A stretch of 47,030 nucleotides of DNA, from contig JBGPJN010000002.1 in assembly GCA_041485445.1 (NCBI GenBank), positions 1-47,030 of the forward strand, written 5' to 3'. Source of the stretch: Dehalococcoidia bacterium. Its GTDB lineage: Bacteria > Chloroflexota > Dehalococcoidia > Lucifugimonadales > UBA3495. The notes under the pieces are model-generated. The model was not told the origin of the DNA. It made no database searches and worked only from the letters and a program-made list of their open reading frames with translations. Positions 8,481 through 45,766 of this stretch are shown here, one piece after another; positions within the stretch are counted from its first letter, which is position 1, and every line of letters begins with the position of its first letter. Position numbers and translations under genes: made by a program.

Positions 8481-8659
8481 TGAAGCACCTCACGGCCCAC
8501 GGGTACCGGTGTGGTAAGGCCCAGGTCATTCTAGCAGAACCCAGTGGCCTGGAAGCGTCCCCTGCCCGCGCATTGACCCGGCCCCAGGCCGGGGCTAGAA
8601 TGCTAGCATCTTCCCGAAGCCGCCGGCAACGGTTGGCGACGGAATTTCAAGGGGGCGCG

Positions 8660-9070
8660 ATGTTCACGTCGGTGCATCATGTACACTATGTGGTCCGCAA
8701 CCGGGACGCCATGGTGGCCTACATTGAGAAAAACTTTGGCCTCAAGCCCATCAACCAGGAGGTCCACCCCGGTCGTGGCAAGGATGCCATGTACAAGGTG
8801 GGCACCACCCTCATCGAGCTGACCGAGCCGCTGGACCCCAACTCGCCCATGGCCAAGCAGCTGGCCGCCAGCGGTCCGGGCGTGTGGCACGTGGCCTGGC
8901 GGGTGCCCAGCGTGCGCCAGGCGGCCAAGGAGTTGGCCGCCAAGGGCAACAAACTGCGGGGGGAGGGCGGACTGACCCAGAGCCCGCGGGGGTACACCAC
9001 GGTGAACATCGACCAGGCCAGCTCCCTGGGCGTCTGGTTCCAGTTGGCGCAGGGCGCCGCCAAGGAGTAA
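8660..9070 (+). CDS. VOC (glyoxalase/bleomycin-resistance/dioxygenase) family protein, methylmalonyl-CoA-epimerase-like
   Basis: MFTSVHHVHYVVRNRDAMVAYIEKNFG...GPGVWHVAWRV. Start at ATG 8660 inside track ORF 8480-9070. Confidence 0.78.
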   Translation: MFTSVHHVHYVVRNRDAMVAYIEKNFGLKPINQEVHPGRGKDAMYKVGTTLIELTEPLDPNSPMAKQLAASGPGVWHVAWRVPSVRQAAKELAAKGNKLRGEGGLTQSPRGYTTVNIDQASSLGVWFQLAQGAAKE

Positions 9071-9148
9071 GGGAAGGATGACCCTCGCCGCTGCCCGCGT
9101 CCCGCTCTGGCGGGGCGGCCAAGGGCAACATTGCCAAGGGCAACATTG

Positions 9149-10828
9149 ATGGAAACACTGTTGGTCCGAGACACCATCCTCCAGCTGGTGGCCCAGGCCG
9201 TGGCCCACGCCCAGCGGGAAGGGGAGTTGCAGCTCCAGACCACCCCGGAGATCGAGGTGGACCGCCCCGCCAAGGGGCAGCACGGCGATTTCGCCACCAA
9301 CCTGCCCCTGCGGCTGGCCCGGGCCACCCGTCTCAACCCACTGAAGCTGGCGGAGAAGCTGGCTAGCTACATGCCGGCCAACGACGCGGTGGCCCAGGTG
9401 GTGGCCGCGCCGCCGGGGTTCATCAACTTCTACCTGCGGGAGCGCTGGCTGCAGGAGCAGGTGGAGCTGGTCCGCCAGGCCGGGGCCCAGTACGGTCGCG
9501 TGGCCATGGGCCAGGGGCGGCCGGTGATGGTGGAGTTCGTCAGCGTTAACCCCACCGGCCCGGTGCACGTGGGCCACACCCGGGGCGCGGTGCTGGGCAG
9601 CACCCTGGCCAACGTCCTTGACGCGGCGGGGTATGCGGTCACCCGCGAGTACTACGTCAACGACGCCGGCAGCCAGATGGAGGCGTTCTACCGGTCGGTG
9701 CTGGCCCGCTACCAGCAGGCCCTGGGCGTGGCCGCGGAGCTGCCCCCCAACGGCTACGTGGGCCAGTACGTAACTGACCTGGCCCAGGATATCGTCCAGT
9801 CCCATGGCCGCCGGTTCCTGGACCTGGACCAAGCCACCGCCATCAAGGAGATCGGCGACCTGGGCCGGGAGAAGATGGTCGGCCTCATCCGGGAGGACCT
9901 GGCGTTCATCGGAGTCACCTTCGACAACTGGTTCAGCGAGCGGTCCCTGTACCAGAGCGGCGAGTACCAGCAGGCGCTGGACTTGCTCCGGAAGCAGGGC
10001 TACCTCTCGGAGCGGGAGAACGCCCTGTGGTTCAACTCCACCCTGCTGGGCGACGACAAGGACAACGTGGTGGTGCGCTCCACCGGCGAGCCCACCTACT
10101 TTGCCTCGGACATCGCCTACCACCACAACAAGTTCATCGGGCGGGGGTTCCACAAGGTCATCAACATCTGGGGCGCCGACCACCAGGGCCACGTGCCCCG
10201 CATGAAGGCGGCGGTGGCGGCCCTGGGGGCCAACCCCGACGACCTCACCATCCTCATCGCTCAGATGGTCACCCTCAAGCGGGGCAAGGAGGTGGTGCGG
10301 GCCTCCAAGCGCACCGGCGAGTTTGTGACCCTGCGGGAGCTGGCCCAGGAGGTGGGCGTGGACGCCTGCCGCTACTTCTTCCTGGCCCGCAGCCCCGACG
10401 CCCAGATGGAGTTCGACCTGGAGCTGGCCAAGAAAGAGTCGGCGGAGAACCCCGCCTACTACATTCAGTACGCCCACGCCCGCAACGCCGGCATCCTGAA
10501 CCTGGCCCGCACCCGGGAGATCGACTGGAGCCAGGGCGACGTGACCCTGCTCAACGACCCCAACGAGCTCAACCTCATTCGCACCATGTTGCGGCTGCCC
10601 GAGCTGGTGGGCCAGATGGCCCGGTCGCTGGAGCCTCACCACCTGCCCCACTACGCCATGGAGCTGGCCACTGCCTTCCACTGGTTTTACGAAAACTGCC
10701 GGGTCATCTCCGCCAACGCCGAGGACAACGACCTGACCCTGGCCAGGTTGAAGCTGGTGGAGTCGGCCCACATTGTCCTTGGGCGCACCCTGGCGCTCAT
10801 GGGAATGGCCGCCCCGGAGCGCATGTGA
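9149..10828 (+). CDS. argS: Arginine--tRNA ligase
   Basis: Class I HIGH motif region (NPTGPVHVGHTRGAVLG), then EYYVNDAGSQ, a C-terminal anticodon-binding DALR-type region, and the ending RM. ATG 9149 was chosen as start. Confidence 0.95.
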   Translation: METLLVRDTILQLVAQAVAHAQREGELQLQTTPEIEVDRPAKGQHGDFATNLPLRLARATRLNPLKLAEKLASYMPANDAVAQVVAAPPGFINFYLRERWLQEQVELVRQAGAQYGRVAMGQGRPVMVEFVSVNPTGPVHVGHTRGAVLGSTLANVLDAAGYAVTREYYVNDAGSQMEAFYRSVLARYQQALGVAAELPPNGYVGQYVTDLAQDIVQSHGRRFLDLDQATAIKEIGDLGREKMVGLIREDLAFIGVTFDNWFSERSLYQSGEYQQALDLLRKQGYLSERENALWFNSTLLGDDKDNVVVRSTGEPTYFASDIAYHHNKFIGRGFHKVINIWGADHQGHVPRMKAAVAALGANPDDLTILIAQMVTLKRGKEVVRASKRTGEFVTLRELAQEVGVDACRYFFLARSPDAQMEFDLELAKKESAENPAYYIQYAHARNAGILNLARTREIDWSQGDVTLLNDPNELNLIRTMLRLPELVGQMARSLEPHHLPHYAMELATAFHWFYENCRVISANAEDNDLTLARLKLVESAHIVLGRTLALMGMAAPERM

Positions 10829-10855
10829 ACCCCGGCGGTCCCCCCGCCTCCCTGC

Positions 10856-10886
10856 GTCGCCTGCTTTGTGCAGGCGACTTCTGTTT
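10856..10886 (+). terminator. Intrinsic terminator after argS
   Basis: GTCGCCTGC-TTTGT-GCAGGCGAC (9-bp stem) followed by TTCTGTTTA. Confidence 0.6.
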
Positions 10887-11006
10887 ATAGCCGCTTCCCG
10901 ATACCTCGCGCCGTGCAAGGTTTCACGGACTATAACCTGCACTTATAGCTGCCATAATGCTTTTTACGATAGACGTAACTGAATGGCTGATATAAGTAAA
11001 AAAGTA

Positions 11007-11035
11007 TTGATTGTGAAGCAAAATCAGACTACACT
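11007..11035 (+). promoter_or_regulatory. Sigma-70-type promoter candidate for the selenoprotein operon
   Basis: TTGATT-17 nt-TACACT in the only AT-rich stretch upstream of 11092. An AGGAGG ribosome-binding site lies at about 11078. Confidence 0.5.
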
Positions 11036-11091
11036 TTCTGTCGTAGGTCAAAGAGGCGACGGATAACGGCTTCGGTAAAGGAGGAACAGGC

Positions 11092-11868
11092 ATGGCTACC
11101 CAGGTCGCGCCAGACATTGAAGTTTTGCGGCGGGAGGTGCAGCACAAATACACCGAGGTGGCGACCAGGCCGGAGCAGACCTTCCACTTCCACCACGGCC
11201 GGCCCCTGGCCCAGCTCCTGGGCTATCCCATGAACATGGTTGACGCCATGCCGGCCCAAGCGGTGGAGTCCTTTGCCGGAGTGGGCAACCCCTGTGGCCT
11301 GGGGGACATGCGCCCTGGGGAGACGGTGCTGGACGTGGGATGCGGCGGCGGCTTCGACAGCGTCATCGCTGCCCAGGCGGTGGGGCCAACGGGCAAAGTC
11401 ATCGGGGTGGATATGACCCAGGCTATGCTGAAGAAGGCTCGAGCCACCGCTCGTCAGATGGCATTGAAGCAGGTGGAGTTCCGCCGTGGCTTCGCCGAGG
11501 AGTTGCCCATTCCCGACGCCTCGGTGGACGTGGTCATCTCCAACGGTGTGATTAACCTGTGCCCGGATAAGCACCGGGTCTTTGCCGAGGTCTTCAGGAC
11601 TCTCAAGCCCGGCGGCCGTCTCTATCTGGCGGACATTGTGTTGCATAAGGCGGTACCCGATGGCGCCAAGGCCAACGTAGACCTGTGGACTGCTTGAATC
11701 GGCGGCGCTCTCCTGGAGGGAGAGTACCTGGATGCCATCCAGCGGGCCGGGTTCGTGGATGTGGAGTTGGTATCCACCGCGGATGTTTTCGCTGGGTCCG
11801 GCGGGGAGGGCAACGCCCACGCTTTTGGAACGGTGGGGGCCAACATCAGGGCCCGCAAGCCAGCCTAG
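11092..11868 (+). CDS. ArsM-like SAM-dependent methyltransferase with in-frame UGA, predicted selenocysteine at codon 202
   Basis: GETVLDVGCGGGFD is the SAM motif and VVISNGVINL is the ArsM-type motif. The track ORF stops at TGA 11695-11697, but the frame stays open to TAG 11866-11868. The extension encodes IGGALLEGEYLDAIQRAGFVDVELV, which continues the ArsM fold. The TGA sits where ArsM has the conserved Cys of W.GC.AGAL. Confidence 0.75.
11708..11724 (+). promoter_or_regulatory. Candidate bacterial SECIS hairpin for the methyltransferase UGA
   Basis: CTCTCC-TGGAG-GGAGAG has a 6-bp stem and a G-rich apical loop. It starts 11 nt after the UGA. Confidence 0.45.
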
Positions 11869-11922
11869 GGACGGTGCTGGGAATCAAGGGACCAACCAAA
11901 TTTACTTCGTATGGAGAAACCA

Positions 11923-12285
11923 ATGGCGAGAATACTATACATAGGGACTCACGGGACCGATGATCCAACCAATGCCACATTCCCCTTTCTGATGGCCAAG
12001 GGTGCTATTGAGGGGGGGCACGAGACGGGCATCATTCTCCAAGGAGAAGCTGCGCCGTTAATCAAAGATACCATCGCCGCGCAGGTTCACGGGGTCGGCA
12101 TTCCGCCCCTGAAGGAGTTGATGGACTTCCTCGTTGCACGCAAAGTCCGGATTTCTGTTTGAGGACTCTGTGGCCGTGCCCGTGGGGTCACGGAAAAGGA
12201 CTTTGAAGGGAAGAACAGCGGCTTTGGCACCCCAGTCGATGCGGCGAAGGCGCACGCTGAATACGACCGGGTGGTGAGCTACTAG
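11923..12285 (+). CDS. DsrE/DsrF-like family protein with in-frame UGA, predicted selenocysteine in a UGLC (UxxC) motif
   Basis: MARILYIGTHGTDDP...GHETGIILQGEAAPL is DsrE-like. The track ORF ends at TGA 12160-12162, and the same frame continues for 40 codons (GLCGRARGVTEKDFEGK...DRVVSY) to TAG 12283-12285. GGAG lies 8 nt before ATG 11923. Confidence 0.7.
12174..12193 (+). promoter_or_regulatory. Candidate bacterial SECIS hairpin for the DsrE-like UGA
   Basis: CCGUG-CCC-GUG-GGG-U-CACGG forms 5+3 bp with a bulged U and a GU-containing apical loop. It starts 12 nt after the UGA. Confidence 0.45.
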
Positions 12286-12311
12286 CGCCCGCGCTCCGCA
12301 CGGAGACCGCC

Positions 12312-12339
12312 AAGGCCCTGCCAGTAATAGCGGGGCCTT
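12312..12339 (+). terminator. Possible terminator after the selenoprotein operon
   Basis: AAGGCCC-(14 nt)-GGGCCTT followed by TGAATT. The T-tract is weak. Confidence 0.3.
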
Positions 12340-12349
12340 TGAATTGCCC

Positions 12350-12473
12350 CAGGGTCGTTTCATTCTCCCCAAAGTAGGGCAGACACATGTGTCTGCCCTA
12401 CGGCTGGAGGAGCAGACCAGGGCGCACACGCAGGTGCGCCCCTATAGGCAGACCCAAGAATAAAACGACCCTG
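12350..12473. repeat. MITE-like palindromic element, copy B
   Basis: Termini are CAGGGTCGTTTCATTCTC and GAATAAAACGACCCTG. The interior hairpins GGGCAGACAC-ATGTGTCTGCCC and GGGCGCAC-ACGCAG-GTGCGCCC are nearly identical to copy D. Confidence 0.7.
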
Positions 12474-12493
12474 TTGAGTTGGCCAGCTTGCCC

Positions 12494-12522
12494 TTGAATC
12501 TCAGGCGTATCGGGCGTAAGAT
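12494..12522 (+). promoter_or_regulatory. Promoter candidate for the ABC exporter pair
   Basis: TTGAAT-17 nt-TAAGAT. This would give a very short leader before ATG 12539. Confidence 0.4.
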
Positions 12523-12538
12523 AGCCTTTAGTGCGTAA

Positions 12539-14317
12539 ATGAGCATCCTACTCCGAATCACCCGAATGACCTGGCGGTACCCCTTCCGCCTGTCCTTCGC
12601 CTACATAACCCTGGTGCTGTCCGTGGTGGCCACGCTGGCCATTCCCCGGGTGCTGGGCCGCGCGGTGGACGGCATCGTCGGCGGGGCGGACCGCGGGCAC
12701 CTGATGACGCTGGCCCTGCTGCTGTTGGGGATCAGCGTCCTGCGTGGTATCTTCGACTTCGGGCGCATCTACTTCGCCGATTCCACCTCCCACCGGGTTA
12801 CTTACGACTTGCGCAACCTCCTCTACGACAAGTGGCAGCACCTGAGCTTTGCCTACCACGACAAGGAGCACACCGGCGACCTGATGTCCCGCGCCACCGC
12901 GGACGTGGAGTCGGTGCGCCGCTTCATCAACCTGGGACTGCTGCGCTCGGTGCACATGACCCTGATGATGATCGTAATCTGCGTACTGATGCTGCGGGTG
13001 AACTGGCAGCTCGCCCTGCTGAGCCTGAGCTTTGCGCCCTTCATGATGGCCCGCTCCACCATGGTGGTGTACACCCTGCGCCGCTCCTGGGCCCGGGTCC
13101 AGCAGTTGACCGGTGAACTGGTCACCGCCCTGCAGGAGAACCTGTCGGGCATGGCCGTGGTCAAGGCCTTTGCCGCAGAAACCTTCGAAGAGAAGAAGTT
13201 CTCCGCCAAGACCCGGGACTTGGCCGACGCCAGCTTTCGCTCCGACCGCATCGAGGCCGGCAACAACGCCACCACCACCTTCTTCTTCACCCTGGCCACC
13301 GGGCTCATCATCTGGTATGGAGGGGCGCAGGTGGTCAAGGGCGACCTAACCCTGGGCCAGTTCACTCAGTTCATTTTCTGGATGAGCATGCTGAACCAGC
13401 CCATCCGCATGTCCGCCTGGATCATCAACACCTTCGCCCGGGCGGTGTCGGCGGGGGAACGGGTCTTTCAGGTGCTGGACGCCCGGTCGCCGGTGAGTGA
13501 GCGCACCGACGCCCGGGCCCTGGCGCGTCCCCGGGGCCAGGTGGATTTTGACCACGTGTCCTTCGGCTACGACGCCGTCTCTCCGGTGCTCAAGGACGTG
13601 GACATCCACGCCCGGCCGGGGCAGGTGACGGCCATCCTGGGGGCGCCGGGCAGCGGCAAGAGCACCATTGTCCATCTGCTGCCCCGCTTCTATGACCCCA
13701 CGGAGGGCGCCGTGCGCCTGGACGGCGCCGACATTCGGGAGTTCACCCTGGACTCCCTGCGCCGCCACGTGGGTATTGTGGCCCAGGACGTGTTCCTGTT
13801 CGCCGCTACTATCCGGGAGAACATCGCCTACGGGGTGGCCGACGCCACCGAGGAGGACGTGGTGCGGGCGGCCAAGACCGCCCAGCTTCACGACTTCATC
13901 ATGAGCCTGGATGATGGGTATGACACCTGGGTGGGCGAGCGCGGCGCCACCCTCTCGGGCGGCCAGCGCCAGCGCATGGCCATTGCCCGCACCATCCTGC
14001 TGGACCCCCCGGTGCTGATCCTGGACGACTCCACCTCCAGCGTGGACGTGGAGACGGAGCGCCAGATCCGGCAGGCCATGCGGCAGGTGGTGGCAGGGCG
14101 CACCACCTTTATCATCGCCCACCGGCTGAGCACCGTCCGCCACGCGGACCACATCCTGGTGATGCAGGACGGAGTTATCGCCGAGCAGGGCAGCCACGAG
14201 GAGCTTTACGCCCGCAGTGGCCTGTACCGCAACATCTACGAGTTGCAGCTCAAGCCGCAGGAGGAGATCCTGCTGGAGGCCGCCTCCCCCCTGAGCGCCG
14301 CCGGAGGGAACGCCTGA
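12539..14317 (+). CDS. ABC exporter, fused permease/ATPase subunit (MdlA/type-I exporter half-transporter)
   Basis: 6-TM domain followed by Walker A GAPGSGKST, signature LSGGQRQR and Walker B LILDDSTS. The stop overlaps the next start (TGATG). Confidence 0.9.
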   Translation: MSILLRITRMTWRYPFRLSFAYITLVLSVVATLAIPRVLGRAVDGIVGGADRGHLMTLALLLLGISVLRGIFDFGRIYFADSTSHRVTYDLRNLLYDKWQHLSFAYHDKEHTGDLMSRATADVESVRRFINLGLLRSVHMTLMMIVICVLMLRVNWQLALLSLSFAPFMMARSTMVVYTLRRSWARVQQLTGELVTALQENLSGMAVVKAFAAETFEEKKFSAKTRDLADASFRSDRIEAGNNATTTFFFTLATGLIIWYGGAQVVKGDLTLGQFTQFIFWMSMLNQPIRMSAWIINTFARAVSAGERVFQVLDARSPVSERTDARALARPRGQVDFDHVSFGYDAVSPVLKDVDIHARPGQVTAILGAPGSGKSTIVHLLPRFYDPTEGAVRLDGADIREFTLDSLRRHVGIVAQDVFLFAATIRENIAYGVADATEEDVVRAAKTAQLHDFIMSLDDGYDTWVGERGATLSGGQRQRMAIARTILLDPPVLILDDSTSSVDVETERQIRQAMRQVVAGRTTFIIAHRLSTVRHADHILVMQDGVIAEQGSHEELYARSGLYRNIYELQLKPQEEILLEAASPLSAAGGNA

Positions 14318-16281
14318 TGCAGATGCACGGCGGCGGCGGGGGCATGGGCTTCGGCATCAGCGGCTCCGCGGAGCGCACCGGCGGGGCGGGCTCGGCGGTC
14401 AAGGTTGCCGACGACGAGATCCTGGGCAAGGCCTACGACCATAGTGTCACCATGCGCCTGGCCCGGTACGTGTTGCCTTTCAAGAAGTGGGCGCTCATCA
14501 CCCTGGTGGCGGTGGTGCTGTACACCGGCGCCACGGTAACCTTCCCGCTGCTGGTCAAGTGGGCCATTGACTCCTACATCAAGCCCGGGGTGACCGCGGG
14601 CCAGGTCGCGGGCCTCCACAAGGTGGCGCTGATCTTCCTGGCGGTGGCCCTGGTCCACTACGGCTCCAACTTCGTGCAGGCGGCGTCCATCTCCAAGGTG
14701 GGCCAGGGTGTGCTCTACACCATGCGCACCCAGATGTTCAACCACCTGCAAACCCTCTCGCTGTCCTTCTTCCGGCGCACGGAGGTCGGCCGCATCATGT
14801 CCCGGATGCAGAACGACATCCTCCAGCTCCAGGAAACCTTCGAGATCATGGTGATGACCCTGGCCGACATCCTGAGCCTGGGGGGCATCGTCGTCATGAT
14901 GGTCATCCTGGACTGGAAGCTGGCGCTGATCACCTTCAGCGTCATCCCGGTGCTGTTCTTCCTCATGGCCTACTGGCAGCGGTTTGCCCGGCGCTCCTTC
15001 CTGCGCATCCGGCGGGCCATCGCCCTGGTCAACGGCGCACTGCAGGAGAACATCGCCGGCGTACGGGTGGTGCAGAGCCTGAACCGGCAGAAGCGCAACC
15101 TGGAGCAGTTTGACGCGTTGAACCGGGAGCACCGGGACGCCAACATTCACGCCACCCTCTTTGCCGGCGGGGTGCAGCCGCTGGTGGAGCTGCTTACGGG
15201 AACCTCCACCGCCCTGGTCATCGTCGTCGGCGGCTGGTGGGTGGTCAACGGGTCGTTGCAGGTGGGGGTGCTGGTGGCCTTCGTGCTGTTCATCCAGCGG
15301 TTCTTCGACCCCATCCGCAACCTGACCATGCAGTACACCCAGCTCCAGCGGTCCATGGCTTCCGGGGTACGCATCTTTGAGCTGCTGGACGTACAGCCCG
15401 AGGTGACGGACCAACCCGGCGCCCCGGCCATGCCGCCCGTTCAAGGCCACATCAAGTTTGAGGACGTGGACTTTGCCTACAAGCCGGGCGTGCCGGTGCT
15501 GCAGAATGTGAACATTGACGTGCGGCCGGGGGAGACGGTGGCCCTGGTGGGCCCCACTGGCGCGGGCAAGACCACCACCGTGGCGCTGGTTAGCCGCTTC
15601 TATGACGTGACCAGCGGCCGCATCACCATTGACGGCCATGACGTGCGCGACGTGACCCGAGCCTCCCTGGTGGGCCAGATGAGCATGGTGCTGCAGGAGC
15701 CGTTCCTGATCTCCGCCACGGTGAAGGAGAACATCCGCTACTCCCACACCGAGGCCACCGACGAGAAAGTGGTGGAGGCGGCCAAGGCGGTGGGGGCCCA
15801 CGACTTCATCATGCGCCTGGAGCAGGGCTACGACACCATGCTGCGGGAGCGGGGCAGCAACCTGAGCATCGGCCAGCGGCAGCTCATCAGCTTTGCCCGG
15901 GCCATCGTGGCCGACCCGCGCATCCTCATACTGGACGAGGCCACCGCCAACGTGGACACCTACACCGAGATGCTGATCCAGGAGGCCCTGAAGCGCATCC
16001 TGGTGGGACGCACCTCCCTGGTCATCGCCCACCGGCTGTCCACCATCCGCAACGCCGACCGCATCGTGGTGCTGGACCACGGGCGGGTGATTGAGCAGGG
16101 CAACCACTGGGAGCTGTTGCGCCTGGGCGGTCTCTACGCCCACCTCTACTCCATGAACTACGGCGACGAGGGCGTGGCGGCGGAGCTGTCCCGCAACGGG
16201 ACTGGCCCGGTGTCGCCGGAGATGTCCCGCAACGGCGGGAGCCCCGGCGCGGTGGCGCCCAGCCCGGCGGTGGGTGACTGA
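14317..16281 (+). CDS. ABC exporter, fused permease/ATPase subunit (MdlB-like partner)
   Basis: Walker A GPTGAGKTT, signature LSIGQRQL, Walker B LILDEATA. It has a Gly-rich N-terminus and an extra C-terminal tail. Confidence 0.9.
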   Translation: MQMHGGGGGMGFGISGSAERTGGAGSAVKVADDEILGKAYDHSVTMRLARYVLPFKKWALITLVAVVLYTGATVTFPLLVKWAIDSYIKPGVTAGQVAGLHKVALIFLAVALVHYGSNFVQAASISKVGQGVLYTMRTQMFNHLQTLSLSFFRRTEVGRIMSRMQNDILQLQETFEIMVMTLADILSLGGIVVMMVILDWKLALITFSVIPVLFFLMAYWQRFARRSFLRIRRAIALVNGALQENIAGVRVVQSLNRQKRNLEQFDALNREHRDANIHATLFAGGVQPLVELLTGTSTALVIVVGGWWVVNGSLQVGVLVAFVLFIQRFFDPIRNLTMQYTQLQRSMASGVRIFELLDVQPEVTDQPGAPAMPPVQGHIKFEDVDFAYKPGVPVLQNVNIDVRPGETVALVGPTGAGKTTTVALVSRFYDVTSGRITIDGHDVRDVTRASLVGQMSMVLQEPFLISATVKENIRYSHTEATDEKVVEAAKAVGAHDFIMRLEQGYDTMLRERGSNLSIGQRQLISFARAIVADPRILILDEATANVDTYTEMLIQEALKRILVGRTSLVIAHRLSTIRNADRIVVLDHGRVIEQGNHWELLRLGGLYAHLYSMNYGDEGVAAELSRNGTGPVSPEMSRNGGSPGAVAPSPAVGD

Positions 16282-36213: not shown

Positions 36214-38019
36214 TCAACGCGCCTTCCGCGGCCATGGCGCGAAGGCGTTGTTAACCTGCCCCAGGAAGGGCGCCAGGCTGGGGTAGTGCCGCAGCAGGAC
36301 GGTGGACATGGTGTTGTTGTCGATCCAGTCCATGCCCAGCTTGGTGTACACCGCCGGTGTGTAGTCGGTGGTGAAGAACCGGTCGCTCTTCAGCCGCCGG
36401 GATGCCATCAGCACGAAGATGCGGAAGGCGGTGTCGCTGAACCCAAACCCCCGGGGCGTGGGCTCGGCATACATGCCCACCATGGTGTCCACCCGGTCCA
36501 CGTCGTTGTCGTAGACCTCCCGCAGTTCCTCCGCCCAAACGCGGTTCTTGGTCAGCTGCTCAAAGCTCTTGACCCGCGGCTTGTGCAGGAGCTGCCGGAA
36601 CTGGTTGTAGCGGGGCACCCCGCGCTCCCGGTCCCGCAACACGTCCACCGCGGCCAGGTCCACCAGGGCGCCGGTGGGCTGCTTCAGCTGCCGCAGGAAG
36701 CGGGGGAAGTTGTGCAGGGTGACCGCGCCCGGATTGGAACTGCCCAGGGAGTAGAATAGGTCCGGCATGGCGATCTGGGACTGCAACTTCCGGACGTTCC
36801 TCCCCTCCACATCTGGAAAGGTCTGGTCCAGGAGGGAACGGTCCCCATCCAGTGAGCGGAAATTGAAATCGTCCGGGATCAGGGGGTGCAGCCGGTAGAC
36901 TGCAGTGAACTCCTCGGTCATGGCGTAGGGCGCCCCGTGGTGCGCAGTGAGCGAGCCGGGAATGCCGCCGAGGAAATCGCTGCGGCCCAGCCGGCCAAAG
37001 CCCCGGTGGAACCGTTCCCCCATCAAGCCCCACCAGTTGCCCCGCATGGCGAAGCGCAGGGTGGGTTGGGCGAGAATGCCGGGGGTCCACTCCACCGTGT
37101 GGATCTTGGCCATCAACGCCCCGTTGATGAGCCGGGCGCGGTCAAACACCTGGTCGTCGGACCAGTCGGGGTACTCGGCGGCCAGGCGGTCGCAGATGGC
37201 GTTATGCTCCTTGGTGAACAGGGTGTGCAGCAGGCTCAGGCCCACCCACCAGTTGTCGTTGATGCCGGTGCGGTCGGTGCCGGTCTTGGGGTCCAGCGGC
37301 AGCAGCCCGTCGGCGCCCACGATGAGCTTGCCCTTGTCCCCCGACCGCAGGCTGGCCTGGGCCTCCGCGGTGTTGCCGTAGATCTGGGACGCGTCCCACC
37401 AGTGCACCGAGGTGTTGATGGAAGTGGGAGGAAGGCCCCGGTCCTTCCCCTCCGGCGCGTAGGTTGGGTCCCGCCGGGTGCGTCCGATGCGCATGGGGCG
37501 TTCCGGCCACGGGTCGGCCTGGTCCAGGGGCAGCTCCCAGGGGTTCTCCGGCTCCGGCATGCCGTGATTGAACCAGTCGTGGACCTGGAACTGGATCCAG
37601 GCCGCGGCCAGCACGTTCAGGGAGGTGGCGGGGATAAAGGTGTCCCGGGCCAGCAATCGGGCGCTGACGGTGCGGGGATTGGGCGTAAGGAGGGCGGCGG
37701 GCGCGTCCGGGAATCCGAACTTCAGCGGAACGTTGCGGGCGAACCTCGTCCCAACGCTGCCCATCGTGGGGTACTTCAGGTCGTTTAGGGTTCCGTCCAC
37801 GGTGCGGGCGGTGCGATATCGCTGCTGCTCGGCGGTAAGCTCCGGACCGGGGGTGGACATCGTACCGGTGGTGTCGTGGAGGTTCCGCTGCCGCAGGGTG
37901 TCGCGGATGGCCACCAGGTTCAGCACCGCCAAGGGCTTGGGCAGTCGGTACCACGGCACCACCCGGTTGATGCCGCTGAAGGTCTTGATGAGCAGCCAGG
38001 ATAAGGGCGATCCAGCCAT
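36214..38019 (-). CDS. Haem peroxidase-cyclooxygenase superfamily protein, alpha-dioxygenase/fatty-acid dioxygenase-like
   Basis: Distal-His region AAAWIQFQVHDWFNHG, proximal-His region AKIHTVEWTPGIL, and the Tyr motif EEFTAVYRLHPLIPD, which matches the YR.H/YHWH catalytic-Tyr context of alpha-DOX and COX. Confidence 0.83.
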   Translation of the reverse strand: MAGSPLSWLLIKTFSGINRVVPWYRLPKPLAVLNLVAIRDTLRQRNLHDTTGTMSTPGPELTAEQQRYRTARTVDGTLNDLKYPTMGSVGTRFARNVPLKFGFPDAPAALLTPNPRTVSARLLARDTFIPATSLNVLAAAWIQFQVHDWFNHGMPEPENPWELPLDQADPWPERPMRIGRTRRDPTYAPEGKDRGLPPTSINTSVHWWDASQIYGNTAEAQASLRSGDKGKLIVGADGLLPLDPKTGTDRTGINDNWWVGLSLLHTLFTKEHNAICDRLAAEYPDWSDDQVFDRARLINGALMAKIHTVEWTPGILAQPTLRFAMRGNWWGLMGERFHRGFGRLGRSDFLGGIPGSLTAHHGAPYAMTEEFTAVYRLHPLIPDDFNFRSLDGDRSLLDQTFPDVEGRNVRKLQSQIAMPDLFYSLGSSNPGAVTLHNFPRFLRQLKQPTGALVDLAAVDVLRDRERGVPRYNQFRQLLHKPRVKSFEQLTKNRVWAEELREVYDNDVDRVDTMVGMYAEPTPRGFGFSDTAFRIFVLMASRRLKSDRFFTTDYTPAVYTKLGMDWIDNNTMSTVLLRHYPSLAPFLGQVNNAFAPWPRKAR

Positions 38020-38035: not shown

Positions 38036-39493
38036 CTACTGGGTCTTCAAATACTCCAAGATGGCTTCCTTCTCCTCGGTAGCCAGGTTGGTGCCATAGG
38101 TGTGGCCGCCGTTGCTGTTGCCCCTGGCGGTGGTGTCGTACCGCCAGCCCAGGCGCTCGGCTTCCGCGCCGGCGGACTGGAAGCCCACGTCGGCGAAGTT
38201 ATAGACCGGGTAGCCCCGATAGAAAGCCTTCGGGCGCTCTTCCGGGGGCTTGAGCAGGTCCCGCAGGGTGGGCACGGAGCCGTTGTGCAGGTAGGGCGCC
38301 CGCAGCCAGATGCCGTCCAGGGGCATGTTGGCGTAGCCGCCGGTGGTGCGGAAGTGGGAGAACTTCCATGGATAGCCGGTGCCCAGGGTGTTCATGCGCT
38401 GGGCCAGCTCCGGGCTGAAGGACCTCAGCCGCTCAGGGTCTGTGCCCACGGCGCTGAGGGGGGTGACCTGCCCCACGTCCCGCCCGTCCAGGGCATGGCA
38501 CTGGGCACAGTTGGTCTGGAACAGCCTCTCCCCGGCTTGGGCGCGGCCCTGGTCGATCCGCGCCGCCGGGAACCGGGGCGGCGGCAGGTCCAGGATCCAG
38601 TCCTCGATCCGCTTCATGCCTGCCAGGTCCAGGGATGCGGGCGACGCTCCGGCGCCAATGGCCGCGCTTTTGTTCCGCTCCTCCACTGAGTTGTTGTTGC
38701 CGTCCCAGTGCAGCCACATGTTGGCCCGCGCCCGCTGGTTCCACAGGGAGGGCAGGTCGGCGGTGCCCACCGTGTCGTCGCCCGCCAGGTCCATGCCCAG
38801 CAGCCGCTTGTAGGGGTTGAAGGTGTCCACGCGACCCGGTCCCAGGGGCGGGCGCGCCTCCATCCAAGAAAAATTGGCGGCCTCCTGGAGCAGGGCGTCT
38901 TTGGTGCGGGGAATGATTAGATAACGGTAGATCAGGCCGTCCAGCCAGGAGAAATCCGGGTTGGCCGCCCGGATGGCGGGCAGGAGGGTGCCGGCGGTGA
39001 AGCGCGGGTCCCGGGCGCTGGCAAAGAGGAACCCCAGGTAGCCCGCCAGGTTGAACTGGCCGGCCGGCATGCCCAGGACCAACTGGGCGGGCGCCCCGGG
39101 CGACTCCTGCACCAGGCTGCTGTGGCATAGGGAGCAGTTGAGCCCCACCATGGGGAACGGCTTCTCCCGGTAGCTGGTGCCGATGGGGCGCTGGTGGGCG
39201 GGGGACTCGTAGATGAAGCCCAGGCGGGCGTAGCCCTCCCCCGGCCCCGGGGGCAGGCGCTCCGGGAAGACGGTGGGCAGGACCCGCCAGATCCAGTAGG
39301 GGATGCCCGACCGGCCTTCCGCACCGATGGAGCCGTACTTGAAGTGGTCCTCGATGCTGGCGTGCAGCTCGGGCACGTTCCGCTGAAACCAGACCAGGGC
39401 GTAGATGCCGGCCACCACCGCCACCGCCAGCAGCCCGGCGAGGGCCGCCAGGGAGATTCTCCAGCCACGGGACAGCCTGCTCAGCTTCTTCAT
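38036..39493 (-). CDS. Membrane-anchored dihaem c-type cytochrome, cytochrome-c-peroxidase/MauG-like
   Basis: Two CxxCH motifs (NCSLCHS and NCAQCHA). The N-terminal anchor is ISLAALAGLLAVAVVAGIYAL. APYLHNGSVPTLRDLL and the C-terminal GHTYG...EKEAILEYLK are typical of the CCP/MauG family. Confidence 0.72.
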   Translation of the reverse strand: MKKLSRLSRGWRISLAALAGLLAVAVVAGIYALVWFQRNVPELHASIEDHFKYGSIGAEGRSGIPYWIWRVLPTVFPERLPPGPGEGYARLGFIYESPAHQRPIGTSYREKPFPMVGLNCSLCHSSLVQESPGAPAQLVLGMPAGQFNLAGYLGFLFASARDPRFTAGTLLPAIRAANPDFSWLDGLIYRYLIIPRTKDALLQEAANFSWMEARPPLGPGRVDTFNPYKRLLGMDLAGDDTVGTADLPSLWNQRARANMWLHWDGNNNSVEERNKSAAIGAGASPASLDLAGMKRIEDWILDLPPPRFPAARIDQGRAQAGERLFQTNCAQCHALDGRDVGQVTPLSAVGTDPERLRSFSPELAQRMNTLGTGYPWKFSHFRTTGGYANMPLDGIWLRAPYLHNGSVPTLRDLLKPPEERPKAFYRGYPVYNFADVGFQSAGAEAERLGWRYDTTARGNSNGGHTYGTNLATEEKEAILEYLKTQ

Positions 39494-41204: not shown

Positions 41205-42410
41205 TCACACCCACGGGGTGCGCTTGGACCGCTCCTTCTCCGAGGTGTAGGTGGGCTGCCCCTGGCGCTCCAGGGCCTGGGACAACATCTCCTTGAACAG
41301 CCGGCGCTCCGGACCCCGGATCACCGCCTGCTCGTGGGACTCGGAGATGGCCACCGGGTAGCCCTGCCCCCGGCGGCACTGGTCCAGTATCAGGCTGTGC
41401 CCCAGGGCCAGCAACGCCTCGTCCTGGGCCACCCACTGGGGCACCTCCACCCGGCCCAGCTCTTCCCCGGTGTTCAGGTAGTAGAAGTACACCTGGTGCT
41501 CCCCATAGTGCTCCCGGGGCACGGAGGACGTGGTGCGGTAGATGGGAGACCGCCAGCCGGGGGGCAGCACCTCCTGGAACAGCTCCCGGTCCAGGATGCC
41601 GGTGGCGGCGCTGCAGGGCGCCAGGGCGGAGCGCCGGTTGCCGCAGGACTCCCGGCAGCGGCCCAGGTCGTGGGGGCAGAGGCAGCAGCGGACGGCGTTG
41701 ACCACCTCGGCGCTGCGGGGCAGGGAGACGTAGGCGGCCACCGTCACGGCGCGGGTGGCGGACAGCTCCCGCAGCTGTTCCAGGGAGGACAGCAGCTCCC
41801 CGATGATGGCGTCGCGCACAAAGGGCCGGTAGCCCTGCCCCGACAGCCCCCACAGCACCAGGGAGCCGTCCACCAGGGCCAGGGTGGGCAACCCGGCGGG
41901 CGCTTCCCGCACCACCTGCACCAGCCGAGCCAACTCCCGCACCGTGCGCACCAGCCCCAGCAGGGCGCCGGTGACGGTCTCTTCGTGGGCGGAGTTGGCC
42001 GGGTCGGTGAGGTAAAGGTCCGAGTCTGAGGACGCCAGTTGCGGCTGACTGAAGAGCTGGGCCGCGGGCCGCGCGCCGTAGGTCAGCACGCAGCCGCCCA
42101 GGTTCAGGAGGTAACAACTTATGGGCAGGTGGCGGTCCACGTCGATATGGGAGCCGTCCACCGCGGCCACGCACCAGTCGGCCGGCGTTGCCGAGGGCGC
42201 ATAGGCGCCCAGGAGGGTGTCCACCACCTGGGCCGCCAGGAAGGGACGGTCCGCCGCGTACCGGGTCTGCTCCACGGCGGTGCTGGCGCTGACCCGTCCG
42301 GCAGCCTCCACCAGGGCGGCCAGCCTGGCCCGGCGGTCCTCCCGGCGGTCACCCGCCTGCCGGGCCGCTTGGTCCAGCTGGAGCAGCGTTTCGCCCAGGT
42401 CAAGGGACAC
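41205..42410 (-). CDS. NurA-domain nuclease-like protein
   Basis: VAAVDGSHIDVD, TLALVDGSLVLWG and GQGYPVAISESHEQAVI match the NurA acidic and GYP motifs as I recall them. GTG start lies 6 nt after the selB stop. Confidence 0.65.
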   Translation of the reverse strand: MSLDLGETLLQLDQAARQAGDRREDRRARLAALVEAAGRVSASTAVEQTRYAADRPFLAAQVVDTLLGAYAPSATPADWCVAAVDGSHIDVDRHLPISCYLLNLGGCVLTYGARPAAQLFSQPQLASSDSDLYLTDPANSAHEETVTGALLGLVRTVRELARLVQVVREAPAGLPTLALVDGSLVLWGLSGQGYRPFVRDAIIGELLSSLEQLRELSATRAVTVAAYVSLPRSAEVVNAVRCCLCPHDLGRCRESCGNRRSALAPCSAATGILDRELFQEVLPPGWRSPIYRTTSSVPREHYGEHQVYFYYLNTGEELGRVEVPQWVAQDEALLALGHSLILDQCRRGQGYPVAISESHEQAVIRGPERRLFKEMLSQALERQGQPTYTSEKERSKRTPWV

Positions 42411-42416
42411 GGTGCG

Positions 42417-44282
42417 CTACCTCAGCACCCGTTCGTCGCCCATGCGACGGGTGACGCGCTGCTGGTCCAGGTGCTCCAGCAGGGGCAGGATGTACTTGCG
42501 GCTGGTGTTCAGCATGGTGCGGGCCTCCGCCACGGTGATGCGCCCGTTGGCCTTCAGGTGGGCCACGATCTTGTCCGAAATCTCCTGGTAAGCGCCGGCG
42601 GTGAACACCACCGACTCGTTGACCTTCACCACCTTGCCCTGGTCCACCAGGACGCCCAACAGCTCGGCGTCCAAGGGCAGGTCGGTGGGTGGCGAGTAGG
42701 GGTCCTGGGCCAGGGCGCTCAGGTAGGTGGCGGCCTGGCGCTCCAGGGCTGGGGTCAGGGCCACCTGATGGCTGGGCAGGCGCAGGTGCTGGCCTTCCTC
42801 CATCACCAATCCCTCCTGGGCGGCGCGGGCCAGCACCCGCAGGTACACCGGCTGGGCCAGGCCCAGGCGGCTGCGCAGCTCCTGGGAGGGCATGCCGCCC
42901 CGCAGCGGGTGCTGCCGGTGGTAGGCGGTCAGGTCGGTGAGGGTCTGGTCCCTGAGCCGGTTCCAACCCGCGCGGGAGTAGACCACGGCATCGGCCTCCG
43001 ACGCCAGGTCGCCCAGAGCCACCATGTCTCCGGCAGTGGCAAGCTGGGCGGCGCGCTGCCGCACCTCGGCCAAGGGCAGGTTGGCCCGCCGGGAGAGGGC
43101 CCCCAGGTCGCAAGGACCCCACTGGTCGGCCAGGCTGATGAGCACGTCCTCGCCGGTGCCCTGGTCCAGGGTCGTCAGCTGCGCTACCACGTCGGCCTGG
43201 TAGCGACGGTGTCGCCTCCGGGGATTGGGGTCCACCACCTGGCCGCCCCCCAGGGTGTCCTCGGCGGAGCGGAGGATGAAAAAGTCGCCCTTCACCACGG
43301 GCACCGGGTTCTCCAGCAGCAATTGCACCCACCCTTGGGCGCCCGCGGCCAGCTGGTCCACCTCCAGCAGCCGCACCCGCGCCGGGGTTTCGCTGGAGAA
43401 CAGGTGAAAGGTCACCCCCTCGTTGTGGCGCAGGGCATGGGGCGCGCTGCGCACCATGCGCAGCCGGGCGTCCACCCGCTGGGTGGCGCGCAGCCAGCCT
43501 GGGGTCGTCAGAATCTCGCCGCGCTGGATATCGGTGCGGGCCGCCCCGGACAGGTTCACCGCCAGGCGCACACCCGGCCCCGTGCGGTCAATCTTGCTCT
43601 GGTGGCTCTGCAGGCCGCGGACCCGGCAGGTCAGGCCCGAGGGCACCAGCTCCACCTCCTGGCCCACCTCCAGGCTGCCGTCAATCAGGGTGCCGGTGAC
43701 CACCGTGCCGAAGCCGGAGACGGAGAAGCAGCGGTCCACCGGCAGGCGGGGCCGGCCCAGGTCCCGGCGGGCGGTGGTCTGGTCCAGGATGCCGTCAATG
43801 GCCGCCTTCAGCTCCTCGATGCCGGCGCCGGTGTAAGACGACACCGCCAGCATGGGGCAGCCCTGAAAGGCGGTGCCGGCCAGGGTGTCTTCCACTTCGG
43901 CCTTCACCAGCTCCACCAGCTCGGCGTCCACCAGGTCGGCCTTGGTGATGACCACCAGGCAGCGGCCGATCTGGAGCAGGTCCAGAATGGCCAAATGCTC
44001 CCGGGTCTGGGGCATGACGCTCTCGTCCGCCGCCACGATGAGCAAGGCCAGGTCAATGGCCCCCACCCCGGCCAGCATGTTCTTGATGAACCGTTCGTGG
44101 CCGGGCACGTCAACGATGCTCACCTCCCGGCCGCTGGGCAGGGTCATCCAGGCAAAGCCCAGGTCAATGGTCATCTCCCGCTCCTTCTCCTCGGGGAGAC
44201 GGTCCGGGTCGATGTTGGTCAGGGCTTTGACCAGGGTGGACTTTCCGTGGTCCACGTGGCCGGAGGTTCCGATGACGTACAT
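42417..44282 (-). CDS. selB: Selenocysteine-specific translation elongation factor
   Basis: [47 protein letters not shown] and ITKADL form an EF-Tu-like GTPase. A C-terminal extension of about 270 aa with winged-helix-like repeats follows, which is typical of bacterial SelB. Total length 621 aa. Confidence 0.92.
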
Positions 44283-44689: not shown

Positions 44690-45766
44690 TTAGTTGAACT
44701 GGATTTTGTCCACCCAGATGCCGTCCGCCGGGGTGGCCCCCGCCGGGTCGTTCCAGAACTGCCACTGGAAGGATAAGGGCCGTATATCCGGCACCGCCAC
44801 CTCAACGTGCGTCCAGGACCCGTCGCCCGCCAGGTCCACACTGACCTGCCTGGGGGCGCCGACCACCCGGAAGGAGGCGCAGCAGCCGGCGCCGGTGGTC
44901 CGGACATCGAAGGAGATGGTCCGCACCGAGGCGGGGAGCTCGTCCCTGTAGCCCAGCGACAAGGTGGAGTACCCGGCCCCTGTCAGCGCGGCCGATCTCA
45001 GGCACGGCGCCTCCTTGCATTCGCTGGTGAAGTGCACCATCCACGGACTGCCGACGACCTGGAATCCCCGGAACCCCAGGGCCTCAGCTTCCGGCGACGT
45101 AACTGGGATTTGTTCCAGAGGAAACAGAAAGGAGGTGGGCGCCGGTGCCGGTGTGAACTGGACACTCCCCGTGGCCGGCTCAGAAGTTGGGGGCAGGGAG
45201 GCGGTATGAGTCAGGTTGGGGGTCAGCACCAGCGTGGGTACGGGCGTAGGGTTGCTGGTGTGGAAGGAGATGGGCTGGGGCGCTTTGGGCCCGCGGCCAC
45301 CGGGCAGCAGTCCCGGCAGGACGCCAACACCGAAGAGAACCGCCATGCCGATGGCGCCCGCGACAGCTATCAGTTTGGCCCGGCGCTCCAGACTGCGGCG
45401 GGGCTCCACCCTTGGAGGCGCCGAGTGCTCGGATGGTGGCTGTGAAGCGGTGGGAGGTTGGGCCCGCGGCGGCGGACTTGCCTGGTGGCTAGCCGTCACG
45501 CCGCTGGGTGTGGAGCCTTGCGCAGTGCGGGACTGGCACGCTTGGTCGTACTTGACCCGCCGCGGCGAGTCGGACAAAACCTCGTAGGCCTCGTGCAACT
45601 CCTGCATCCGGGCCGAGTTCAGCTCGGTGTCGCCAGACCCATCCGGACGGTAGATCTGCGACAACTGCTGCCAGACGCGGCGAATGGTCCCAATGCTGGC
45701 GTTGGACTTGACGCCCAGCACATGGTAGTAGTCCTTCCATGGGCTTTCGTACTGCTCTCGAGGCAT
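44690..45766 (-). CDS. Membrane-anchored J-like domain protein with a Cys-containing C-terminal domain
   Basis: The N-terminal DnaJ-type domain is KDYYHVLGVKSNAS...EAYEVLSD..RRVKYD, but it has RPD in place of HPD. A Pro-rich linker and one TM segment (LIAVAGAIGMAVLFGVGVL) follow. The C-terminal domain of about 170 aa is shared with 46112-47030. Confidence 0.78.
   Translation of the reverse strand: MPREQYESPWKDYYHVLGVKSNASIGTIRRVWQQLSQIYRPDGSGDTELNSARMQELHEAYEVLSDSPRRVKYDQACQSRTAQGSTPSGVTASHQASPPPRAQPPTASQPPSEHSAPPRVEPRRSLERRAKLIAVAGAIGMAVLFGVGVLPGLLPGGRGPKAPQPISFHTSNPTPVPTLVLTPNLTHTASLPPTSEPATGSVQFTPAPAPTSFLFPLEQIPVTSPEAEALGFRGFQVVGSPWMVHFTSECKEAPCLRSAALTGAGYSTLSLGYRDELPASVRTISFDVRTTGAGCCASFRVVGAPRQVSVDLAGDGSWTHVEVAVPDIRPLSFQWQFWNDPAGATPADGIWVDKIQFN

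Follow-up and report, generated by a model that had tools for sequence, protein, structure and literature searches.

Does the in-frame TGA at 11695-11697 in a stretch of DNA from a Dehalococcoidia bacterium (contig JBGPJN010000002.1 of assembly GCA_041485445.1, positions 1 to 47,030; hereafter the window) end the gene for an ArsM-like methyltransferase, or does it encode selenocysteine (Sec)? A mechanically made list of open reading frames (ORFs) ends the gene at 11697, with a product of 201 amino acids (aa), while a prediction made earlier from the sequence had read on through the TGA to the next stop codon and called the product most likely a selenoprotein. The answer reached here, largely by comparison with related sequences, is that 11092-11868 is very probably one gene, whose product would be a selenoprotein of 258 residues with a predicted Sec at residue 202. 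The features of the gene, all on the forward strand, are these.

11078..11084 (+), Shine-Dalgarno sequence AAGGAGG, 7 nt 5' of the ATG at 11092, read from the sequence
11092..11868 (+), full coding sequence of the ArsM-like, S-adenosylmethionine (SAM)-dependent methyltransferase, a predicted selenoprotein of 258 aa with Sec at residue 202
11695..11697 (+), predicted Sec UGA, residue 202, in the column of CmArsM Cys224 and of the UxxG motif
11698..11865 (+), 56-codon C-terminal extension missed by gene callers, holding a helix and the final two beta-strands of the methyltransferase fold
11707..11725 (+), candidate bacterial selenocysteine insertion sequence (SECIS) hairpin, with a 7-bp stem (11707-11713/11719-11725) and the loop UGGAG (11714-11718)

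The coordinates, the translation and the 56-codon read-through are exactly as the original prediction gave them. In translation, the TGA is preceded by ...ANVDLWTA and followed by 56 sense codons, which encode IGGALLEGEYLDAIQRAGFVDVELVSTADVF...RARKPA, before a TAG at 11866-11868; the peptide predicted to span the Sec is ANVDLWTA-U-IGGALLEGEYLDAIQR. The N-terminus of the protein is conserved among relatives, and Pfam recognizes Methyltransf_31 (E=6.5e-34), Methyltransf_25 and Methyltransf_11. As stand-alone evidence, the open frame past the TGA was rejected, the window containing 138 comparable frames. Because neither the open frame nor the hairpin goes beyond chance when taken alone, the case is made through related sequences.

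At the protein level, the 201-aa ORF was used in a HMMER search of 1.84 billion cluster representatives, taken at 50% identity and given P-numbers below. The search returned 1170 proteins at E<=1e-30, the best 150 of which were parsed. Among those 150, the Sec column holds Cys in 59, is the point where the protein ends in 41 (presumed Sec), shows another residue or a gap in 11, and belongs to partial sequences in 39. The few representatives with W or G at this column are probably alternative-code translations. A search with phmmer against the sequences of the PDB finds CmArsM (4FR0, 4FS8, 6CX6) at E=1e-29, in an alignment that places residue 202 on Cys224 and the next 30 residues, the start of the extension, on CmArsM 225-254. 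When the window protein was aligned by MAFFT with two canonical ArsMs and four Cys-form members of its subfamily, all six of these had Cys at the Sec column. The claim that the TGA falls on a conserved Cys column is thus borne out, both by the 59 Cys representatives among the best 150 and by CmArsM Cys224.

The extension also belongs to the fold. An AlphaFold2 model was built for P0129, a Cys homologue that is 49% identical to the window protein and ends ARKP, from a 73-sequence alignment; its mean predicted local distance difference test score (pLDDT) is 95.5 and its predicted template modelling score (pTM) 0.91. Cys 214 of P0129 corresponds to residue 202 of the window protein, and the model places after it a helix and strands at 234-238 and 260-267. 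Since these two core strands follow the Cys, the sheet of a 201-aa product would be without its final two strands. Foldseek searches with the model return CmArsM, CrArsM and human AS3MT at the top (E about 1e-19, template modelling (TM) score 0.6-0.66). Several longer representatives of 400-608 aa, P0121, P0127, P0128, P0137, P0139 and P0145, have the methyltransferase domain at the C-terminus and stop precisely in the Sec column, so that N-terminally fused architectures include Sec forms too.

At the DNA level, related stretches (L-numbers below) were drawn from a genome collection, a metagenome collection and look-ups of the contigs that encode database proteins. The scan of the genome collection gave 6 loci, all at <=62% identity; close relatives came from the metagenome scan and the contig look-ups. 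All of the related stretches with the family motif, 27/27, have TGA at the Sec column, where TAA or TAG never occurs. The 27 come from at least two phyla, Chloroflexota and Actinomycetota, and include a Chloroflexia chromosome, an Ilumatobacter metagenome-assembled genome (MAG) and an Actinomycetota MAG with two copies. After the TGA the frame stays open for 55-74 codons, in most cases to a conserved ...ARKP end, and Cys homologues share both the tail and its ARKP end.

Changes within the tail are those of coding sequence. Compared with L019, the tail differs at the three codon positions by 6/5/30, and of its codon changes 28 are synonymous and 7 non-synonymous; compared with L026, the differences are 6/8/34, with 27 synonymous changes vs 10 non-synonymous. 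The same holds across the closer relatives (L007, L009, L019, L025-L029), in which third-position differences dominate the tail and synonymous changes exceed non-synonymous ones, and the figures for L019 and L026 match those of the 50 codons 5' of the TGA. The most distant relatives are too diverged for codon counts, and their tails still align as protein. Judged by these codon changes, the tail is under purifying selection in the closer relatives and evolves as coding sequence. Selection, alignment to Cys homologues and to ArsM, and the two core strands together uphold the expectation that the last 56 aa continue the methyltransferase. The further expectation that a naive gene caller would report a 201-aa fragment is met by the ORF list itself and, in public data, by 115/120 of the closest database homologues of the read-through protein, which are called at 199 or 201 aa. 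One such truncated homologue is a protein from a GenBank Dehalococcoidia MAG, named only 'methyltransferase domain-containing protein'.

The hairpin 3' of the UGA has a 6-bp core (11708-11713/11719-11724). A closing G-U pair (11707/11725) extends it to 7 bp with the loop UGGAG; it can also be drawn with 8 bp and the loop GGA. Its energy is -10.5 kcal/mol, and the spacing from UGA to loop is 16 nt. Published criteria for bacterial SECIS elements specify a stem of 4-16 bp, an apical loop of 3-9 nt with a G in the first two loop positions, 16-37 nt from UGA to loop, and a minimum free energy of <=-7.5 kcal/mol (PMC13188914). The hairpin at 11707-11725 agrees with these in its 7 bp, the second-position G of UGGAG, its 16-nt spacing and its -10.5 kcal/mol. 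For 19 distinct sequences aligned without gaps from the TGA on, RNAalifold predicts a hairpin that pairs columns 13-20 with 24-31. For the 7-pair helix, 97% of cells can pair, vs 38-52% with the 3' arm shifted 1-3 columns, and 0/500 shuffles reach either its observed pairing or its covariation score. Compensatory changes are seen at 3 helix pairs (C-G to G-C at two of them, U-A to C-G at the third). Pairing persists while the encoded peptide varies (LLEGE, LLEAE or LPCAG), and once a Gly-to-Ala change on one arm is balanced on the other by a switch between synonymous Leu codons, CTC to CTG. Of what was first said about this hairpin, the 6-bp core and the bacterial SECIS geometry stand, with conservation in relatives added; the single-sequence fold energy of the region is unremarkable.

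The Sec-specific elongation factor is encoded in the window, as originally predicted:

42417..44282 (-), selB, TIGR00475 at 340 bits (cut-off 242), with Pfam domains SelB-wing_2, SelB-wing_3 and Beta-barrel_SelB

Both the above-cut-off score and the SelB winged-helix domains identify it. The genes beside selB are a NurA-domain gene at 41205-42410 (-) and, across a 0.4-kb gap, a DnaJ-domain gene at 44690-45766 (-), and not selA or selD.

What kind of selenoprotein, then, would this be? Under PRK11873, the Global Ocean Sampling (GOS) selenoproteome (Zhang & Gladyshev 2008, PMC2398784) has 8 sequences with Sec and 245 with Cys. Reviews from 2022 (PMC9312934) and 2026 (PMC13188914) include an ArsM-type selenoprotein family with the motif UxxG, citing Fomenko et al. 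2007 (Science 315:387), and their tables place this family above the predicted entries, apparently with the experimentally characterised ones. The window protein matches PRK11873 at E=1.2e-71, and its U-I-G-G at residues 202-205 fits UxxG. Because ArsM-type selenoproteins are already catalogued, having been reported in 2007-2008, the window gene is a further member and no new discovery. Among NCBIfam profiles, the best matches are the following ArsM models, each of which falls short of its curated cut-off.

NF041537, ArsM/AhpD selenoprotein: 250 bits, cut-off 510, missed
NF008823 (PRK11873), ArsM: 241.4 bits, cut-off 263, missed
NF047649, methyltransferase/UXPK-star: 238 bits, cut-off 460, missed
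NF041536, ArsM/DUF2284: 234 bits, cut-off 575, missed

NF041537, NF041536 and NF047649, attributed to Haft & Tolstoy 2025 in a table of PMC13188914, are matched only up to about profile position 231-249. The window protein resembles the proteins they describe in its strong methyltransferase-domain match and in the U of UxxG. It differs from them in having no AhpD, DUF2284 or U-x-P-K tail; it has a single Sec and ends ...RARKPA. Membership in the UXPK-star group, suggested by the ...ARKP end, was rejected, as there is no second TGA and the score of 238 lies below the cut-off of 460. With the catalogued ArsM-type selenoproteins in general, the window protein shares the fold family, the position of Sec, a SECIS candidate just 3' of it, and Cys homologues that outnumber Sec forms. 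By the profiles, motif and published lists compared, it differs in belonging to a single-domain subfamily of Chloroflexota and Actinomycetota in which the Cys72 and Cys174 columns hold no cysteine, and in falling short of the NCBIfam ArsM cut-off.

The conserved cysteines of ArsM are residues 44, 72, 174 and 224 of CmArsM, positions verified on the 4FR0 sequence. Cys224 corresponds to Cys206 of human AS3MT, among the cysteines that bind the metalloid beside the methyl group of SAM. In the window protein, the Cys72 column is Val64 ('FAGVGNP' vs 'GCGNP') and the Cys174 column is Gly152 ('SNGVINL' vs 'SNCVINL'), while the Cys-rich N-terminal insert is absent and residues 1-67 contain no Cys. Three of the four conserved cysteines are therefore missing. 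The pattern of V or T with G at the Cys72 and Cys174 columns occurs in 41/41 Sec-truncated representatives and in about half of the Cys representatives; the canonical C/C/C ArsMs among the parsed representatives are all Cys forms. Cys157 (INLCPDK) might have stood in for Cys174 from a shifted position; this was rejected as a feature of the family, its column being C, T, S, V, M or A among representatives. Cys68 is Phe in L008 and L019. Since neither Cys157 nor Cys68 is conserved, Sec/Cys202 is the only conserved thiol or selenol of the sub-class. One metagenome contig, L011, encodes at 673-1485 a protein of about 270 aa, with no TGA, whose first ~110 residues are like the window family (FAGVGNPC) and whose C-terminal half is canonical ArsM (SNCVINL, GCVGGA). 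This hybrid-looking protein could be a recombinant or an assembly chimera.

Set beside canonical ArsM and AS3MT (4FR0/4FS8/6CX6; human AS3MT 8XT7), the window protein has the same class-I SAM methyltransferase core, the substrate-domain topology and the Cys224 column, as Sec; the P0129 model of a Cys-form relative matches this group in Foldseek at E=9e-20 with a TM score of 0.66. Unlike CmArsM, it lacks Cys44, Cys72, Cys174, the large C-terminal domain and an ars operon, and it is about 258 aa long. That it is nonetheless a true arsenite methyltransferase, orthologous to ArsM and detoxifying As(III) with Sec in place of Cys224, is possible but on the unlikely side. ArsM and AS3MT are the top matches in sequence and in structure, the reviews use the name for the selenoprotein family, and the Joint Genome Institute (JGI) labels some Cys-form relatives 'arsenite methyltransferase'; NCBI names the Cys forms, cultured ones such as that of Halomonas included, only 'methyltransferase domain-containing protein'. 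Three results count against an arsenite function: the score of 241 where the NF008823 cut-off is 263, the loss of all but one of the conserved cysteines throughout the Sec-truncated representatives, and the neighbourhood, in which the genes examined, both near the window gene and next to its counterparts in 15 related loci, included no arsR, arsC or acr3/arsB. With the other ArsM cysteines absent and no ars genes nearby, arsenite is doubtful as the substrate. The label ArsM, as first applied, holds for the fold and for the U in the Cys224 column; it fails for the other conserved cysteines. By profile and motif, the window gene belongs, broadly speaking, with the ArsM-type selenoproteins already catalogued; it is not a demonstrated arsenite methyltransferase.

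Several results also weigh against Sec insertion itself. In this 66% GC window, 138 long frames are interrupted by TGA (at least 60 codons before it and at least 24 after). The fold of 11690-11760 as a single sequence is unremarkable against shuffles (z = -0.35), so the SECIS case rests on covariation, and because the sequences are related that covariation probably amounts to only two or three independent events. Rfam searches of the whole window at gathering thresholds, and of 11000-12700 at permissive ones, matched no SECIS family; this null says little, since bacterial SECIS elements are poorly covered and have no general family. The tRNA-Sec was not found in the window, by Rfam or otherwise, and no SelA or SelD family appeared among the window ORFs scanned against Pfam.

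Could the UGA be read through without Sec, by recoding to Trp, Gly or Cys, whether local or genome-wide, or by near-cognate suppression? We regard this as very improbable. A few representatives do have W, G or another residue at the Sec column. TGA is, however, the ordinary stop of 12/30 confidently identified window genes, so the genome is not a recoded one; the window carries selB, a SECIS-type hairpin is conserved at the canonical distance, and homologues have Cys at the column, the classic Sec/Cys pairing. A genuine stop, giving a 201-aa protein followed by a chance frame or the decaying remnant of a pseudogene or truncation, is the least credible account of all, for although TGA-interrupted frames are common in so GC-rich a window, although the fold energy of the region is unremarkable and although every annotation pipeline gives about 201 aa, the tail is conserved across phyla with mostly synonymous changes vs closer relatives, the codon is TGA in every one of the 27 stretches, and Cys homologues continue to the same ARKP end through a tail with two core beta-strands. 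The selenoprotein reading of the original prediction is supported by the conserved TGA, the Cys column, the tail, the hairpin and SelB taken together.

Under that selenoprotein reading, the product would be a class-I SAM-dependent methyltransferase of the ArsM/AS3MT fold. SelB would bind the hairpin at 11707-11725 during translation and deliver Sec-tRNA(Sec) to the UGA at 11695-97, and translation would run on to the TAG at 11866. Because it occupies the metalloid-binding Cys224 column of ArsM, Sec202 may act as a substrate-binding or catalytic residue, and the low pKa and soft-ligand character of Sec may make up for the missing cysteines. If the substrate is a soft metalloid or a chalcogen, it might then be held by one Se ligand together with thiols from outside, possibly those of a DsrE-like U-x-x-C selenoprotein predicted from the adjacent gene. 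The single selenol, along with redox and sulfur-carrier neighbours, makes a chalcogen or another soft metalloid a live alternative as substrate.

The adjacent gene, directly 3' of the methyltransferase, has its own in-frame TGA.

11923..12285 (+), DsrE-like second predicted selenoprotein, 120 aa, with V-U-G-L-C; the ORF list gives an 83-aa fragment
12160..12162 (+), in-frame TGA, predicted Sec of the DsrE-like gene; the same column is TGA in 5 relatives

With read-through, the protein matches the Pfam family DsrE (PF02635) at 42.2 bits (threshold 22.7) over positions 2-114 of the 116-position profile; the truncated 83-aa ORF has no Pfam match. DsrE-like selenoproteins with UxxC have been catalogued as a predicted family (PMC9312934, PMC13188914; GOS table in PMC2398784). 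The window protein is like these, in that its U-G-L-C matches UxxC and its DsrE domain scores above the Pfam threshold. Its SECIS candidate is weak, a 4-bp hairpin with the loop GUG inside a longer stem.

A DsrE-like gene directly 3' of the methyltransferase recurs in relatives. Three (L030, L019, L029) have it with UxxC. In two others (L025:4826-5188 and L007:872-1234) a further TGA follows three codons after the first in the DsrE-like frame, which would give V-U-R-A-U-A, a variant of UxxC with two Sec (UxxU). In an Actinomycetota MAG (L003:3874-4242, +) a Cys-type DsrE (CPVC, Pfam 36 bits) lies ~100 nt after a Sec-methyltransferase; the pairing, seen in six relatives in all, thus crosses phyla. 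A limited literature search found no mention of the placement directly 3' of a Sec-methyltransferase or of UxxU variants of the DsrE-like gene. These two predicted genes might together form a previously undescribed module, in which a Sec-only methyltransferase of the ArsM fold is served by a dedicated DsrE-like UxxC/UxxU (or CxxC) partner that delivers a non-arsenite substrate or releases it reductively. The substrate could then be a persulfide, perselenide, selenide, tellurite or another soft metalloid, and the product may leave through the adjacent ABC exporters. We offer this module as a speculative and, for now, improbable proposal.

Other features of the surroundings are listed here.

10856..10878 (+), terminator-like hairpin (9 bp, T-rich tail) after argS
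12539..16281 (+), two ABC exporter genes (ABC_membrane and ABC_tran domains in each), by Pfam, as context

No terminator-like site was found between the methyltransferase and DsrE-like genes, and the hairpin after argS suggests that a new transcription unit begins with them. L025, L027 and L033 (a GenBank Dehalococcoidia MAG) have the same order, argS, methyltransferase, ABC, ABC, and L028 retains methyltransferase, ABC, ABC. In L025 (3087-3848) and L027 (3193-3933) a tandem paralogue of the methyltransferase lies directly 5' of the orthologue, with TGA in the same column (SSWFA-U-IAGA) and a conserved 47-codon tail. In other relatives, the neighbours are DsbD_N alone, AhpC/TSA with DsbD_N, exporters of the major facilitator superfamily, and regulators of the MerR and TetR families; the neighbours at distant loci were identified by tblastn and a targeted Pfam scan. 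Opposite argS (9131-10828, +), whose domains are matched in full, runs the longest ORF of that stretch, 779 aa at 8603-10942 (-). It has no Pfam match and is spurious, an antisense frame in GC-rich DNA that could mislead an uncritical gene caller into choosing it. Elsewhere in the window, a gene of the animal-haem-peroxidase family (36214-38019, -; E=8e-111) adjoins one for a RoxA-like di-haem cytochrome c (38036-39493, -), a pair uncommon in bacteria.

Both genes need to be called anew as selenoprotein genes, the methyltransferase at 258 aa and its DsrE-like neighbour at 120 aa. The same truncation error runs through essentially the whole clade in public databases, where about a quarter of the family representatives (41 of the best 150) end at the Sec column; truncation on this scale distorts surveys both of 'arsM' abundance and of selenoproteomes in Chloroflexota-rich environments. 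With only one of the four ArsM cysteines kept, and that one as predicted Sec, the label of arsenic-methylation marker may be wrong for these genes. The value of the locus thus lies in a correction of annotation, in a clade without the arsenic-binding cysteine set, and in a second predicted selenoprotein next door. The recurrent DsrE-like partner gives a testable lead to the real substrate of the methyltransferase.

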